From the NCBI RefSeq assembly GCF_010671925.1, contig NZ_JAAHIH010000001.1, positions 741,053-805,052 of the forward strand: DNA of 64,000 nt, given 5' to 3'. The notes below the pieces were generated by a model. That model made no database searches and was not told the origin of the DNA. It worked only from the letters and a program-made list of their open reading frames with translations. Origin of the DNA: Moorena sp. SIOASIH (GTDB taxonomy: Bacteria; Cyanobacteriota; Cyanobacteriia; Cyanobacteriales; Coleofasciculaceae). This document shows, piece by piece, positions 51,167 to 56,526 of this stretch. The stretch's first letter is position 1. The number at the start of each line of letters is the position of its first letter. Position numbers and translations under genes: made by a program.

Positions 51167-54100
51167 ATGGCATTAGATGTCTTGAAACGCTATAACACTC
51201 AGTTATGGTTAGCCCTATGCTTAGCCATTAGTGGAGCGTACGCATTTCCCATAAACCAAGCTAATGCTCAGATTACTCCTGATACCACTTTGCCCACGGG
51301 CGAAAGGTCGGAGCTAGACCTGGGCTCTGGTGAGGTAAATGGGAAAATTGTTGATCTAATTAAAGGAGGAGCAATCCGGGATATCAACTTGTTCCACAGT
51401 TTTTTAGAATTTAATGTTGAAAATGGGCAAAGGGTTTATTTTGCTAATCCAGCTGGGATTGAAAATATTCTGTCTCGGGTAACTGGTGCTAATCCCTCTA
51501 ATATTCTTGGAACCTTGGGTGTCGATGGTGGAGCGAATTTGTTCTTGATTAATCCCAATGGGATTTTCTTTGGGGATAAAGCCAAGCTGGATGTATCTGG
51601 TTCATTTGTGGGCACCACTGCTGATGGGATTGGCTTTGGCAATCAAGGAGTGTTTAGTGCTTCTAATCCAGAGCCTCCTTCGCCATTGCTGACGGTTAAT
51701 CCTAATGTGTTTTTCTTTAATCAAATTCCCGGTAATATTACCAGTCAAGCTAACTTGGAGAAGCTGGCGGTTGATAACCTATTGTTACTTGGTGGTGATG
51801 TTGAGGTTAAAGATAGTAAGATTAGCACCAATCAAGGTGGGAATATTCTGTTAGCGGGATTGGGCGCACCAGGACAAGTAGCATTAACTAGAGACGGTGA
51901 CAAGCTGGGTTTAGGTTTTCCGGATGGCGTCAATAAAGGGAATGTTGTAATTACCAATAGCGCTATAGAAACTTTCGTAGCCAAAGATAGTAATGTTGAT
52001 GGTGGTGAGATTAGGATTATTGCTGATTCTTTGGAAGTAGAAAACTCCGAAAATAAGACAGACCGGGGAATTTTTACTAAAACTGAGAATAATGGTCAGA
52101 AAAGTGGTGATATTAGTATCAGTGCTGATAACTCAGTATTAATTAAGTCTACTGCTAGAGAAAAACGCCAGGGAATCTTTACTACAACAGAGCAAGAAGG
52201 TGGAGAAGGCGGAAAAATCACTATCGATACTGGCTCGTTGACAGTAGAGACGGCTGAAATAGAGCAGGGAATCTTCACCACAACTAAGGGAAATGGTCAG
52301 AAAGGGGGTGATATTATCATCACCGCTGATGACTCAGTTTCTATTATTGCTTCTAATACCGGAAATCAGCATGGAATCTTTACCTTAACAACTAATGCAA
52401 ACGAAGGTGAACTAAAAGGTGGACCAGGAGGAAGCATTCAAATTACTGCTGGCTCCCTGGTGATCGAATCTAGGAGACAAAACCCGGGAATTTCGGCAAT
52501 AACAGGGGGAGATGGTGATAGCGGCAGCATTACCATAGATGTGACTGGGGATGTACTCCTGAAAAGGCAGGGTACCATTAAAACAGAACAACGTAATTCC
52601 AAAACAAAGGGCAGTGTCGGGAATATTTCATTAAAGGTCAATGGCAATGTTACCCTGGCTGATTACAGCAGAATTAAGAGCCAAAATAGCGGTAAGGGAA
52701 CTGGGGGAAAAGTTACGATCTTGGCTGGTGGAGCAGTTGAGGTTAAATACGATAGCAAAATTGAGAGTATCGCTCAAAAAGAAGCTGAAGGAAATAGCGG
52801 GAGCATTGAGATCGAAGCTGATTCCCTATTGCTTGATGCTCGCAAAGATCCCAGCAATCCTGAATCGGAAAGAGGTCTAGTCCAAATTACGACTAAGACC
52901 GAGTCAAAAACTACCGGTGATGGCGGTGACATAAACATCCGTGTTGGGTCCCTGACGATGATTGGACCAAATAAATCCGGTTCTAGTGGTATAACTGCTA
53001 ATACATCAGGAGATGGAAGCGCGGGCAAGATCACAATCATAGTTGAAGGAGACTTCATTATGAAAGATCGAGCCAAAATTGAAGCTAAATCCGAAAAGGG
53101 AGCTACAGGCAATGGTAACGACATAATAATTGAAGCTGGATCACTTTTCTTAAGCAATAGAAGCTTTATCACTACTGAGGCTAGGCCGAACAGTAAGGGA
53201 AATCCGGGAAATATCACGATAACGGCTAAGGATAAGATTGAGCTTAACAACAGCGACATCGAAGCTCTGGTACGTGCTGGAGCGGGAAACCCAGAAACAG
53301 CCAAAAACACTCCAGGAGGCGTTGGCAACATTACCATTACAGCTCGCTCTTTATCTCTTAAAAATGGAGGTAAATTAGAAGCTTTTACTCAGGGCAAACT
53401 CCCAGCAGGTAATATTACAGTCAATGCCACCGATTTTGTGGAAGTTTCTGGAAAAAACGCCAATCGCATAGTTACCGAAACTAGACTAGGAGCTCAGAGT
53501 GTTGGGGACAATGAGCCTAAGGGAGGAAAGATAAATATCACAACTGGTAAATTAACCGTATCAAATGATTCATTTATAAGCACTCGCAGCATCGGTAAAT
53601 TTCAAGGCGGTGAAATCGAAATCAAGGCTAAGGAAGTAGAGGTCACGGAAGGGGGAAAAATTATTTCTACTGCCTTGAATAGTAGTCCCTTTGAGATAGT
53701 AGGCATCACGGAAGGGGGAGAACTTGAGACTAAACCCTTAAGTGAGGATAATGGAGATCCTGGCAATGCTGGCACAATTACGATTAATGCTTCAGAGCAA
53801 GTTATTGTCAGTGGTAGTGCTCCCGACTCCTCCTCAGAACGTATTGCTATTATCAATAATATTCTGGAATCACAAAAGAGGCAACTGGATAACGAAGATA
53901 ATAAACTAAACAGAGAAAACCGTAAACTCATCAAAAAGCTGGATGAACTCCAGGAAAACCAGAATCAACTAACGGAAGCAGACATCAAAAACCTGGAAGA
54001 AGAGATAGAAGAAATTGAGCAAAAAATCCAAGACATAGAAATAAGAAAAAATGAGATAAAACTGGAGATATCCAATGCAGTACTTGTGAGATTTGATGAT

Positions 54101-55174
54101 GACCCTGATAGCATGATTTCGGTGGCAGCCAGGGGAGGTAGCCAGGCGGGAGACTTGACAGTAACAACCGAAAACCTAACTGTCGAAGATGGAACCAAAA
54201 TCTCAGTAAGCGCTGTTCCATTAACTCAGAATGGTTTTCCAGAAACCGATGTGGATGAGAGCGAGTTAGGAGTAGCTGGCACACTAAGCATTAAGGCTGA
54301 GTCTCTAACCCTAGACAACGGCCAACTTGTAGCTGCTACTGGCAAACAAACCAACAACGAACAAGCAGCAACTATCGAAATCAATGTACCGGGAGTGATT
54401 ATACTCGATAACAACAGCCTAATTTTGGCTAGCGCTATAGGTGATGCCAATGGTGGAAATATCGACATTTCTGGTGGAGTATTAGTAGCGCTGCCTCTAA
54501 CTAATGATGACAAAGGTAGCGATATATTTGCTAATGCTCAGCAAGGGGATGGTGGAAAAATTAACATCACCCTGCAAGGCTTATTCAATATGAAGGTACT
54601 CGAAGATACCAGTGCCTTTATCGACTCATCTGGAAATATAATCGAATCCTTAGCTTTTGAGAATAATGATAGTGAAATAGCAGCTCTGAGCTTGAGCAGT
54701 GGTGAATCTGGGACTGTGACCAGGGATATTACCGGCTCAGCACAGGATCCTGAGAACTTACCAACATCACTAGTTGACCCTTCAGCATTAATTGTTGCCA
54801 ACTGTGCCAGTAGTGGAAAAGCAGCGGTAGATGAACTGGGTGAATTCATTATTACTGGACGAGGTGGCTTACCCCCGAGTCCCCTAGACCCAATGAATAG
54901 CCAGTCTGTATGGGTAGATTTGAGAATCCTTGATCCTCAACAAGAGAACATCGAAGAAGCTACGTCTACTCCTACCCCTGAGGTCAGTTACTTGCCCATG
55001 AGAGGGAAACGCCGCACTGCCGAGACTCCTACTCCTGCTCGTCCGAAGAAAATTGTGGAAGCTCAGGGTTGGACTGTTGGGGAGGATGGTACAATTATCC
55101 TGACGGCTCAACCGAATCATGTTACTCCTAAGAGTAATTGGTATATTCCTAGGTCTTGTGGTAGCAAGGGTTGA
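51167..55174 (+). CDS. Two-partner-secretion (TPS, filamentous-haemagglutinin N-terminal) domain exoprotein with a parallel beta-helix repeat body and an internal coiled-coil segment. 1335 aa.
   Basis: Signal peptide present. TPS domain reads GKIVDLIKGGAIRDINLFHSFLEFNV...NILSRVTGANPSNILGTL...ANLFLINPNGIFFG. Beta-helix units GxIxITA...L recur dozens of times. A coiled coil spans aa ~900-960 (ESQKRQLDNEDNKLNRENRKLIKKLDELQENQNQL...). Confidence 0.85.
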   Translation: MALDVLKRYNTQLWLALCLAISGAYAFPINQANAQITPDTTLPTGERSELDLGSGEVNGKIVDLIKGGAIRDINLFHSFLEFNVENGQRVYFANPAGIENILSRVTGANPSNILGTLGVDGGANLFLINPNGIFFGDKAKLDVSGSFVGTTADGIGFGNQGVFSASNPEPPSPLLTVNPNVFFFNQIPGNITSQANLEKLAVDNLLLLGGDVEVKDSKISTNQGGNILLAGLGAPGQVALTRDGDKLGLGFPDGVNKGNVVITNSAIETFVAKDSNVDGGEIRIIADSLEVENSENKTDRGIFTKTENNGQKSGDISISADNSVLIKSTAREKRQGIFTTTEQEGGEGGKITIDTGSLTVETAEIEQGIFTTTKGNGQKGGDIIITADDSVSIIASNTGNQHGIFTLTTNANEGELKGGPGGSIQITAGSLVIESRRQNPGISAITGGDGDSGSITIDVTGDVLLKRQGTIKTEQRNSKTKGSVGNISLKVNGNVTLADYSRIKSQNSGKGTGGKVTILAGGAVEVKYDSKIESIAQKEAEGNSGSIEIEADSLLLDARKDPSNPESERGLVQITTKTESKTTGDGGDINIRVGSLTMIGPNKSGSSGITANTSGDGSAGKITIIVEGDFIMKDRAKIEAKSEKGATGNGNDIIIEAGSLFLSNRSFITTEARPNSKGNPGNITITAKDKIELNNSDIEALVRAGAGNPETAKNTPGGVGNITITARSLSLKNGGKLEAFTQGKLPAGNITVNATDFVEVSGKNANRIVTETRLGAQSVGDNEPKGGKINITTGKLTVSNDSFISTRSIGKFQGGEIEIKAKEVEVTEGGKIISTALNSSPFEIVGITEGGELETKPLSEDNGDPGNAGTITINASEQVIVSGSAPDSSSERIAIINNILESQKRQLDNEDNKLNRENRKLIKKLDELQENQNQLTEADIKNLEEEIEEIEQKIQDIEIRKNEIKLEISNAVLVRFDDDPDSMISVAARGGSQAGDLTVTTENLTVEDGTKISVSAVPLTQNGFPETDVDESELGVAGTLSIKAESLTLDNGQLVAATGKQTNNEQAATIEINVPGVIILDNNSLILASAIGDANGGNIDISGGVLVALPLTNDDKGSDIFANAQQGDGGKINITLQGLFNMKVLEDTSAFIDSSGNIIESLAFENNDSEIAALSLSSGESGTVTRDITGSAQDPENLPTSLVDPSALIVANCASSGKAAVDELGEFIITGRGGLPPSPLDPMNSQSVWVDLRILDPQQENIEEATSTPTPEVSYLPMRGKRRTAETPTPARPKKIVEAQGWTVGEDGTIILTAQPNHVTPKSNWYIPRSCGSKG

Positions 55175-55608
55175 AGCAGTTGACCAAAAATTTTGGGTTT
55201 CAAGCCCCGTCCTTCGTTCGACGGCTTTTAAGTAAAGTGTGATAGAATAAACATGTAGCCTAGTACAGGCAGGATTCGTCGGTACTGCCAATTTCAAACA
55301 ACGACGTAAAGCGATACTAGTACACGAGGAGCGTGCATACCTCGCCAAAACCCATGGATCTGCCACAGATACCGAAACCCCAGTAAAATAACCTTTTAAA
55401 ACTAAACGTACCGTGGGGCACACGGGAACGGGGGAGACCCAACGCTTAGGGAGATAAGCCCACGCTCGTTTAGTTAAATTAGGCTCGATATGCGCGTTTT
55501 TAAACGGGTATTTGGCTTAAGTACTGCCTTTGCTGGATAACTAATTTTAAGGCGTGTCGTAGAACTAAGAATCCCCGCTCTTATAGGGCGGGGAGTGTCA
55601 AAGTGATA

Positions 55609-55759
55609 CACGCTATGTATGCGATCGCGTGGGTGCAGTATTAGGACTTACGCAAATCCCTCAATTTAACGCTACCTGTAGGGTGGGCAAGGTTTTGCCC
55701 ACCCTACCCATGGATTATGTGCGTAAGTCCTGAGTATATGCGATCGCATACATAGCGTG
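55609..55759. repeat. ~150-nt nested palindrome with three concentric stems. The outer arms carry HIP1 GCGATCGC.
   Basis: Three stem pairs: CACGCTATGTATGCGATCGC with GCGATCGCATACATAGCGTG; AGGACTTACGCA with TGCGTAAGTCCT; GTAGGGTGGGCAA-GGTT-TTGCCCACCCTAC. Confidence 0.85.
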
Positions 55760-55911
55760 TATGATGTTAGTCTAGTTATCCTGGTAGTGCAGCCAATATG
55801 CCTGCACTACGGTTCACAACTGATTTACAATTGCTATAGTGATTGTTGCGATTTTTGAAACCCTTGGACTTGGATTCACCTTGGATTTGAGATAAGGGCT
55901 AATAATTCGGT

Positions 55912-56526
55912 ATGATAGACGGTTTAGCAAGATTCCGATACAGGACTATTACATATAGTTGCTGTGTAAGGTGCAGATTTGTTTCCAAATGCCTATTGAT
56001 TCTGGTCGGCTTACTGAGCTGCTGGTATCTACTGGGAACACCATCAGCATTAGCAAGTTTCGATGATGACAGCTATGATGGTAATATTTTTGCTCTGTAT
56101 GCTGGGAATGGCTCTATAGTCCCACCACGAATTACCTTAGAAGATTCTTTGCGCAGGAAAAAGCCAGCTTTGTTGGTGTTCTACGTAGATGACAGTAGGG
56201 ATTGCAAGCTATATTCTGTCACTATCTCTAAGTTACAGGGGCCTTATGGTAGGGCCGCGAGTTTTATTCCAGTCAACATCGACACTTTGTTACCCGAGGC
56301 TACCTATACACCGACAGAAGCGGGATACTACTACCAAGATTTAATTCCCCAGACAGTACTGATTGACCAAAAGGCAGAGGTAGTACTCAATGAAATTGGA
56401 CAAGTTGCTTATGAACAGATAGATGATGTGTTTCGGGAAGTGTTTAACTTACTGCCCCGTTCAGAATCTGTAGAGTTAAAGCTGCGCACTGTCAATGATA
56501 TTAATGCTCAGTTAACATCAGAGTGA
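55912..56526 (+). CDS. Hypothetical membrane-anchored protein, possibly a thioredoxin-like fold without CxxC.
   Basis: N-terminal hydrophobic anchor. No catalytic motif seen. The family assignment is tentative. Confidence 0.4.
   Translation: MIDGLARFRYRTITYSCCVRCRFVSKCLLILVGLLSCWYLLGTPSALASFDDDSYDGNIFALYAGNGSIVPPRITLEDSLRRKKPALLVFYVDDSRDCKLYSVTISKLQGPYGRAASFIPVNIDTLLPEATYTPTEAGYYYQDLIPQTVLIDQKAEVVLNEIGQVAYEQIDDVFREVFNLLPRSESVELKLRTVNDINAQLTSE

Follow-up and report, generated by a model that had tools for sequence, protein, structure and literature searches.

A nested palindrome in Moorena intergenic DNA very probably consists of a 91-bp MITE with ISPlag1-clade ends within a local hairpin

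The window analyzed here (the whole stretch of DNA, 64,000 nucleotides from Moorena sp. SIOASIH) contains a three-layered palindrome in the spacer between two genes. The upstream 1335-aa ORF has its stop at 55174 and the next ORF starts from 55912, as reported in a first-pass annotation made from the sequence alone. That annotation called the upstream gene a TPS gene; the basis for this label is the ortholog in a related Moorena contig (L007), which carries PF05860. The product of the downstream ORF (55912-56526) shares 94-97% identity with Moorena proteins and is a thylakoid-membrane photosystem I accumulation factor. The exoprotein gene has a terminator-like hairpin at 55207-55224, and the downstream gene has promoter-like sites at 55813-55840 and 55887-55916. 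The spacer was also said to hold a CCCCGC/GCGGGG hairpin, which is indeed located at 55572-55594 and has 10-nt arms that are 90% complementary; this hairpin is also kept in L008, L009, and L011 with another loop.

Orthologous loci from 18 assemblies were compared. Upstream of the photosystem I factor gene, conservation starts at about window position 55769 in all loci compared, with the promoter-like sites inside the conserved block, and further upstream the sequence differs between strains. The region from rpsR to the photosystem I factor gene is a strain-variable island (window, L001-L011, and L135-L141). A complete TPS-domain exoprotein gene (51167-55174, 1335 aa) is called in the window and L007 only; L008, L009, and L011 match the window back to 55100, inside the 3' end of this gene, and in L135-L139 rpsR is followed directly by the spacer with nothing between. 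The island holds a resolvase gene in L007 and L140 and IS fragments in L001 and L002. L007 also carries, between DUF6464 and amino-acid permease genes, a gene for a 448-aa OrfB_IS605/Cas12f-like (TnpB-type) protein (L007:15930-17276) that is missing from the other alleles. At the point corresponding to window 55418, a palindromic insertion of ~106 nt is present in the spacer of L008 (701-816), L009 (614-729), and L011 (700-815). This insertion is a member of a further multi-copy repeat family of Moorena, about 105 nt long; L001-L006 hold copies that are 70-80% identical, and the window holds one at 2773-2845.

The palindrome had been described as three concentric perfect stems of 20, 12, and 13 bp. 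All three are present, but the perfect outer stem is 23 bp long and not 20. The 12-bp perfect core of the middle stem was found as described and extends to 15 nt with one mismatch, and the inner stem is a perfect 13 bp around a GGTT loop. HIP1 is the highly iterated palindrome of cyanobacteria (GCGATCGC), and the HIP1 sites attributed to the outer stem occur one per arm, at its inner end. The layers are as follows:

55606-55628, plus strand: outer left arm, ATACACGCTATGTAT followed by HIP1; 23 nt, 100% complementary to the right arm
55740-55762, minus strand: outer right arm, HIP1 followed by ATACATAGCGTGTAT
55643-55657 and 55717-55731: middle arms, 15 nt with one mismatch; the perfect core AGGACTTACGCA is 12 nt
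55678-55690 and 55695-55707: inner arms, 13 nt, perfect, loop GGTT
55621-55628, unstranded: HIP1 octamer GCGATCGC
55740-55747, unstranded: HIP1 octamer GCGATCGC

HIP1 is frequent in this DNA, with 21 sites in the window against 0.29 expected (about 70-fold excess). When the 171-nt segment 55600-55770 was folded as RNA, its energy was -95.6 kcal/mol, compared with -46.7 +/- 4.1 kcal/mol for shuffled sequences (z = -12.0), and 0 out of 200 shuffles were as good; the structure is thus far beyond the shuffles. The minus strand of the same segment folds with z = -12.6, and the DNA fold is -54.4 kcal/mol (z = -11.6).

The middle and inner stems are one 91-bp MITE with ISPlag1-clade ends. MITEs of IS families are well known, and this one has neither coding capacity nor a transposase gene. 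Its features and those of its insertion target are:

55642-55732, unstranded: MITE with ISPlag1-clade (IS701 family) ends, 91 bp; ends TAGGACTTACGCA...TGCGTAAGTCCTG
55642-55654, plus strand: left terminal inverted repeat TAGGACTTACGCA, left arm of the middle stem
55720-55732, minus strand: right terminal inverted repeat (reverse complement CAGGACTTACGCA), right arm of the middle stem
55637-55641, unstranded: target-site duplication AGTAT, left copy
55733-55737, unstranded: target-site duplication AGTAT, right copy
55678-55707, unstranded: central hairpin GTAGGGTGGGCAA-GGTT-TTGCCCACCCTAC, 30 nt, 13-bp stem, GTAG...CTAC
55620-55641, plus strand: HIP1-led unit TGCGATCGCGTGGGTGCAGTAT(A), the insertion target; tandem 23-mer pair in L007

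The insertion can be read directly from the related allele. Removal of 55642-55737 from the window leaves the 31-mer GCGATCGCGTGGGTGCAGTATATGCGATCGC, which is intact at L007:9727, and L007 reads ...TGCGATCGCGTGGGTGCAGTATATGCGATCGC... without interruption where the window has the MITE. Since this deletion restores the L007 31-mer, the window holds a 91-bp insertion flanked by duplicated AGTAT, and filled and empty sites are seen between close relatives (window and L007). A 91 out of 91 identical copy is found in Moorena bouillonii PNG5-198 (L040:6764-6854), in opposite orientation at an unrelated locus. No second copy was found elsewhere in the 64-kb window or in the ~266 kb of Moorena DNA examined; an ISPlag1-like transposase gene gave no tblastn match in the same DNA, and no Moorena plasmid match to such a transposase was found. 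The insertion is polymorphic within Moorena, and it therefore marks recent transposition beside the variable exoprotein island.

ISPlag1 of Planktothrix agardhii is a 1306-bp IS of the IS701 group with one 337-aa transposase (Christiansen et al., 2008, PMC2464740), and its 29-bp terminal inverted repeat is CAGGACTTACGCAAGCACGCTATATATAG (PMC2464740; the IS701 assignment also in PMC9366434). At its ends the MITE carries 13 nt (YAGGACTTACGCA) that match the terminal repeats of ISPlag1 and of its full-length relatives. Identity is complete over these 13 nt (ISPlag1 itself has CAGGACTTACGCA), and beyond nucleotide 13 the resemblance to the 29-bp repeat is loose. Both Y variants, TAGGAC and CAGGAC, occur across the ISPlag1 clade, and the window MITE has one at each end. 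Since these ends are common to the clade, the window element was identified as a MITE of that clade. A full ISPlag1 copy, annotated as 'IS701-like element ISPlag1 family transposase', is present on a Planktothrix plasmid (L134:2501-3806) without recognizable target duplication. There are >7000 homologues of the ISPlag1 transposase, among which no Moorena protein could be picked out. The following full-length relatives all end YAGGACTTACGCA...TGCGTAAGTCCTR, and the 5-bp target duplications among them have the same length as that at the window MITE (amino acid identities are to the ISPlag1 transposase):

Tatlockia relative: 77% identity; flanks incomplete
Merismopedia relative: 69% identity; target duplication CTGCC
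Paraburkholderia relative: 57.6% identity; target duplication ACCTC
Acinetobacter relative: 47.5% identity; target duplication AAGGT (one-base ambiguity)

Bacterial MITEs, including Nezha and the MaeMITEs, are likewise short and non-coding and share terminal inverted repeats with an IS; as here, direct repeats flank them, sites are filled or empty depending on the relative, and a strong hairpin is predicted (PMC3184786). The length of Nezha is about 130-170 bp (PMC3184786), with a 10-bp direct repeat in one copy (PMC6042816), and the MaeMITEs are 176-429 bp. Identity with Nezha was rejected, the window element (91 bp with a 5-bp duplication) being set apart by the published size and repeat length. 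It differs from Nezha and the MaeMITEs in that its end sequence occurs in several phyla.

A genome scan with one genome per species for GGACTTACGCA-N38-68-TGCGTAAGTCC detected at least 120 loci. This number is a lower bound and the N38-68 gap range stops the length distribution at 94 nt, so that neither the copy numbers nor the peak at 90-94 nt are unbiased. Among the matches listed, 94 loci are cyanobacterial (Nostoc, Trichodesmium, Okeania, Coleofasciculus, Calothrix, and others), nine are from Poribacteria, seven from Betaproteobacteria, and five from Chloroflexota, with one each from Rhizobium, Daviesbacteria, and Sericytochromatia. Identical 5-nt direct repeats flank 79 out of 129 copies among the matches listed, and 98 out of 129 when up to one mismatch is allowed. 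These repeats are AT-rich and lie exactly outside YA-GGAC...GTCC-TR; at other independent offsets or lengths, direct repeats were seen in just 0-14 of the same 129 copies. The interiors of the listed elements form many unrelated subfamilies and the common part is the ends. Some other genomes hold several near-identical copies (for example Nostoc P12537, Trichodesmium MAG_R02, and a Comamonadaceae MAG). The occurrence of the same 13-nt ends on full-length IS in distant hosts explains the cross-phylum spread of the short elements.

The smallest family members (L055, L093, L106, and L109) are 64 bp, consisting of two 13-nt ends and a G+C-rich hairpin of ~38 nt, with four copies in one Comamonadaceae MAG; their size suggests that mobility needs very little beyond the ends. 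No full-length IS was found beside unpaired arms among the matches listed (at least 120 loci), where a frameshifted copy in L123 is the sole remnant of an IS. An ORF in L073 was considered as a candidate transposase and rejected, as it codes for a GGDEF/GAF protein. In viral contigs the middle-arm pattern gave one match, an unrelated 68-bp element. No description of a mini-element family with the 13-nt terminus of the ISPlag1 clade was found in the literature searched.

The inner stem is a GTAG...CTAC hairpin carried as cargo by one MITE subfamily. When the window MITE is aligned with its relatives (Okeania, Coleofasciculaceae, and other cyanobacteria), homology is seen in the arms and the central hairpins differ in sequence, starting with GTAG and ending with CTAC throughout. 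The window hairpin GTAGGGTGGGCA...TGCCCACCCTAC is also found inside two other family members, L099 and L120. As a 12-bp stem with loops of 1-8 nt, GTAGGGTGGGCA/TGCCCACCCTAC forms solitary hairpins in at least 120 metagenome contigs (L142-L261): the matches listed comprise 126 hairpins with unrelated flanks in contigs of 33-71% G+C, none of them between both MITE ends and four adjoining one end. The solitary hairpin looks like a very widely shared REP type of the GTAG-tagged kind. GTAG-tagged REPs have been reported in Cyanobacteria, Chloroflexi, the PVC group, and Proteobacteria (Di Nocera et al., 2013, PMC3733652); some of their families are shared by distant organisms, and in Anabaena variabilis some lie within longer palindromes (PMC3733652). 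The inner hairpin agrees with their definition (a stem-loop of 20-40 bp that bears GTAG at one end; PMC3733652), and, unlike them, it sits within a MITE. The high copy number of a REP was not seen within the 64-kb window, which has two GTAG...CTAC hairpins with a stem of at least 9 bp and the inner-hairpin sequence once. With one other GTAG hairpin in the window, the inner stem arrived as MITE cargo and not from a local REP population. The other hairpin, GTAGTGCAGCCAATATGCCTGCACTAC at 55784-55810, lies just upstream of a promoter-like site and is kept with few substitutions in most Moorena alleles examined (3' half only in L138 and L139). Viral contigs gave 0 matches to the inner hairpin.

The outer stem has a different history. 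In L007 the same outer flanks (agtgata...tgatgttag) are found, the HIP1-led 23-mer TGCGATCGCGTGGGTGCAGTATA occurs twice in tandem, and the arms are non-complementary; L140 has a diverged but colinear version of the outer module without HIP1. The outer left arm of the window can be aligned to the left flank of L007. The 15 nt past the second HIP1 (ATACATAGCGTGTAT) substitute, at equal length, for GTGGGTGCAGTATAT of L007, and ATACATAGCGTGTAT is exactly reverse-complementary to the 15 nt preceding the first HIP1. The 15-nt tracts outside each HIP1 are complementary in the window strain only. A further 76 nt of L007 and L140 are missing from the window, between the short direct repeats TTAGTC and TAAGTC. 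L008, L009, and L011 are without the block 55602-55768 and have 11 other nucleotides in its place, which indicates a deletion or replacement allele and not an empty site. As judged from these alleles, the outer stem appears to be local spacer DNA and is not evidently mobile.

One could take the whole 157-nt structure (55606-55762) as a single MITE or two nested MITEs, the 23-bp HIP1-containing arms (ACACGCTATGTATGCGATCGC) being the terminal repeats. The arms are indeed perfect 23-bp inverted repeats and the block is missing from L008, L009, and L011, but the 11 replacement nucleotides there leave no clean empty site, and 55602-55768 was rejected as a clean insertion given these nucleotides in L011 and the old spacer DNA seen in L007 and L140. 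The flanks and the inner HIP1 unit kept by L007, together with the colinearity of L140, argue that the outer module is spacer DNA rather than an insertion. No direct repeat flanks 55606 and 55762. The arm was not found again in the window, the other Moorena loci examined, or viral contigs (where the HIP1 unit also gave 0 matches), and a blastn search of PLSDB, in which all 171 nt of the structure served as the query, found nothing. A near-match, AGGACTAACGCA, in L001, L003, and L004 has no partner arm and is probably due to chance. What such a reading can still draw on is a likeness between the distal half of the arm, CACGCTATGTAT, and the subterminal box of ISPlag1-family ends, a weak lead: up to two mismatches in 12 nt were seen at 10 out of 301 ISPlag1-family ends vs 0 out of 277 controls, and a local alignment to the ISPlag1 left end was equaled or exceeded by 3 out of 300 shuffles. 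We consider a single MITE or a nested pair spanning the entire structure highly improbable, though the outer module might be a relic of an ISPlag1-related element. The first-pass proposal of a MITE thus stands for the middle and inner stems (ISPlag1-type ends, 5-bp duplication, empty site, and identical copy elsewhere) and falls for the ~150 nt as a whole, where the outer stem would be local spacer with no flanking duplication or other copy found. The ISPlag1 left end contains CACGCTATGTAT and the motif GCGATCGCATAC in the order seen in the window (55609-55620 and 55748-55759 vs L134:2515-2555).

Quasi-palindrome templated mutation is a strand-switch model, and the window resembles it in that an equal-length 15-nt tract is replaced by the reverse complement of the partner tract (window vs L007). 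For the outer palindrome we favor a 15-nt templated strand-switch that would have taken place at the self-complementary HIP1 pair. The reverse direction, in which direct-repeat slippage made the tandem 23-mer of L007, would fit equally with what are effectively two alleles (window and L007). The loop of the outer stem lies between the two HIP1 octamers; HIP1 alone leaves the complementarity of the 15-nt tracts unexplained. In 3 out of 104 copies among the matches listed, the MITE has a HIP1 site on either side at a distance of up to 35 nt, vs about 0.05 expected:

L058:1600-1690: HIP1-flanked copy
L122:1613-1706: HIP1-flanked copy
Window 55642-55732: HIP1-flanked copy

The MITE of L058 has a direct copy of GCGATCGCTCGCG on each side, and this 22-nt unit parallels the 23-nt HIP1-led unit of the window and L007. 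Inverted repeats of 9 bp or more flank 6 out of 129 copies among the matches listed, vs about 1.6 expected.

The first-pass annotation also offered a small structured RNA as a reading of the palindrome, that is, an sRNA or UTR element that functions via its nested helices. Extreme fold stability on both strands and the central hairpins of the subfamily, which vary in sequence yet remain paired, count in its favor. Rfam, covariation, and the positions of the downstream promoter-like sites are all against it. Neither the whole window nor 55100-56000 gave any Rfam match at gathering score or at E<=10. In 11 aligned relatives the terminal helix of 12-13 nt is invariant with zero covariation, a compensatory change is seen in 1 out of 18 predicted pairs, and the interior aligns to no common structure; across the family the interiors are unrelated between subfamilies. 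The MITE is missing at orthologous loci of close relatives, the gene signals lie outside the structure (55813-55840 and 55887-55916 downstream of the MITE, and 55207-55224 upstream), and the target duplications point to DNA-level behavior. A functional RNA is accordingly given very little credence. The earlier remark that the structure is too elaborate for a simple terminator was fair: no terminator-like site was called inside 55600-55770, and no T-run follows any stem. The latter also speaks against co-option by the host, in which the structure would serve, for example, to block or insulate transcription between the exoprotein and photosystem I factor genes, or as a cruciform or a protein-binding site. 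Its position between convergent signals (terminator-like upstream and promoter-like downstream) would suit this role, and MITEs and REPs have been reported to affect neighboring genes (PMC3733652), but the structure is missing from close relatives that share the downstream gene and the promoter block. The core of the hairpin, GGTGGGCA...TGCCCACC, is similar to the low-affinity HetR consensus that PMC7476756 quotes; its half-site spacing is 5 nt off that consensus. The inner hairpin was rejected as a HetR site since the spacing differs and the hairpin is also found in high-G+C contigs atypical of cyanobacteria. We regard a host role of this kind as quite unlikely, if somewhat less so than an RNA.

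The overall explanation that we hold to be very probable is a MITE within a local hairpin, with an outer stem that was not brought by the MITE. An ISPlag1-clade DDE transposase acting in trans would recognize the 13-bp ends and excise or copy the element, and such mobilization in trans by an ISPlag1-like transposase would have taken place in Moorena. The MITE would then have inserted at a staggered 5-bp cut in AT-rich DNA, duplicating AGTAT, and the insertion would have fallen in the loop between the two HIP1 octamers, which were 15 nt apart before its arrival. The MITE ends and the central hairpin would in this way have become stacked within the local 23-bp stem. We concluded that the nested palindrome is a composite, an accidental stack of three palindromic layers of differing origin and not one element.

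A broader reading takes the YAGGACTTACGCA-ended elements as one cross-phylum MITE superfamily with constraint on the 13-bp ends alone, swappable GTAG-tagged REP-like hairpins as cargo, and a preference for inserting into tandem or palindromic units bounded by HIP1, in which the outer palindrome came from a HIP1 strand-switch. The hints behind it are the differing central hairpins between homologous copies, the free-standing stem in contigs of 33-71% G+C, HIP1 on both MITE sides, the flanking inverted repeats, and the 15-nt replacement between the window and L007. Taken as a whole this reading is speculative and on balance doubtful; if it is true, HIP1 pairs would nucleate templated palindrome formation.

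The palindrome is ordinary mobile-DNA debris and not a designed RNA. It provides a worked example of how eye-catching nested palindromes can arise in cyanobacterial intergenic DNA by a MITE dropping into a pre-existing hairpin, and in annotation such nested palindromes should be treated as mobile DNA and masked, not put forward as RNAs. From cyanobacteria to Acinetobacter and Paraburkholderia, members of the ISPlag1 clade share a conserved 13-nt terminus, by which abundant mini-elements of ~60-120 bp are defined in several phyla.
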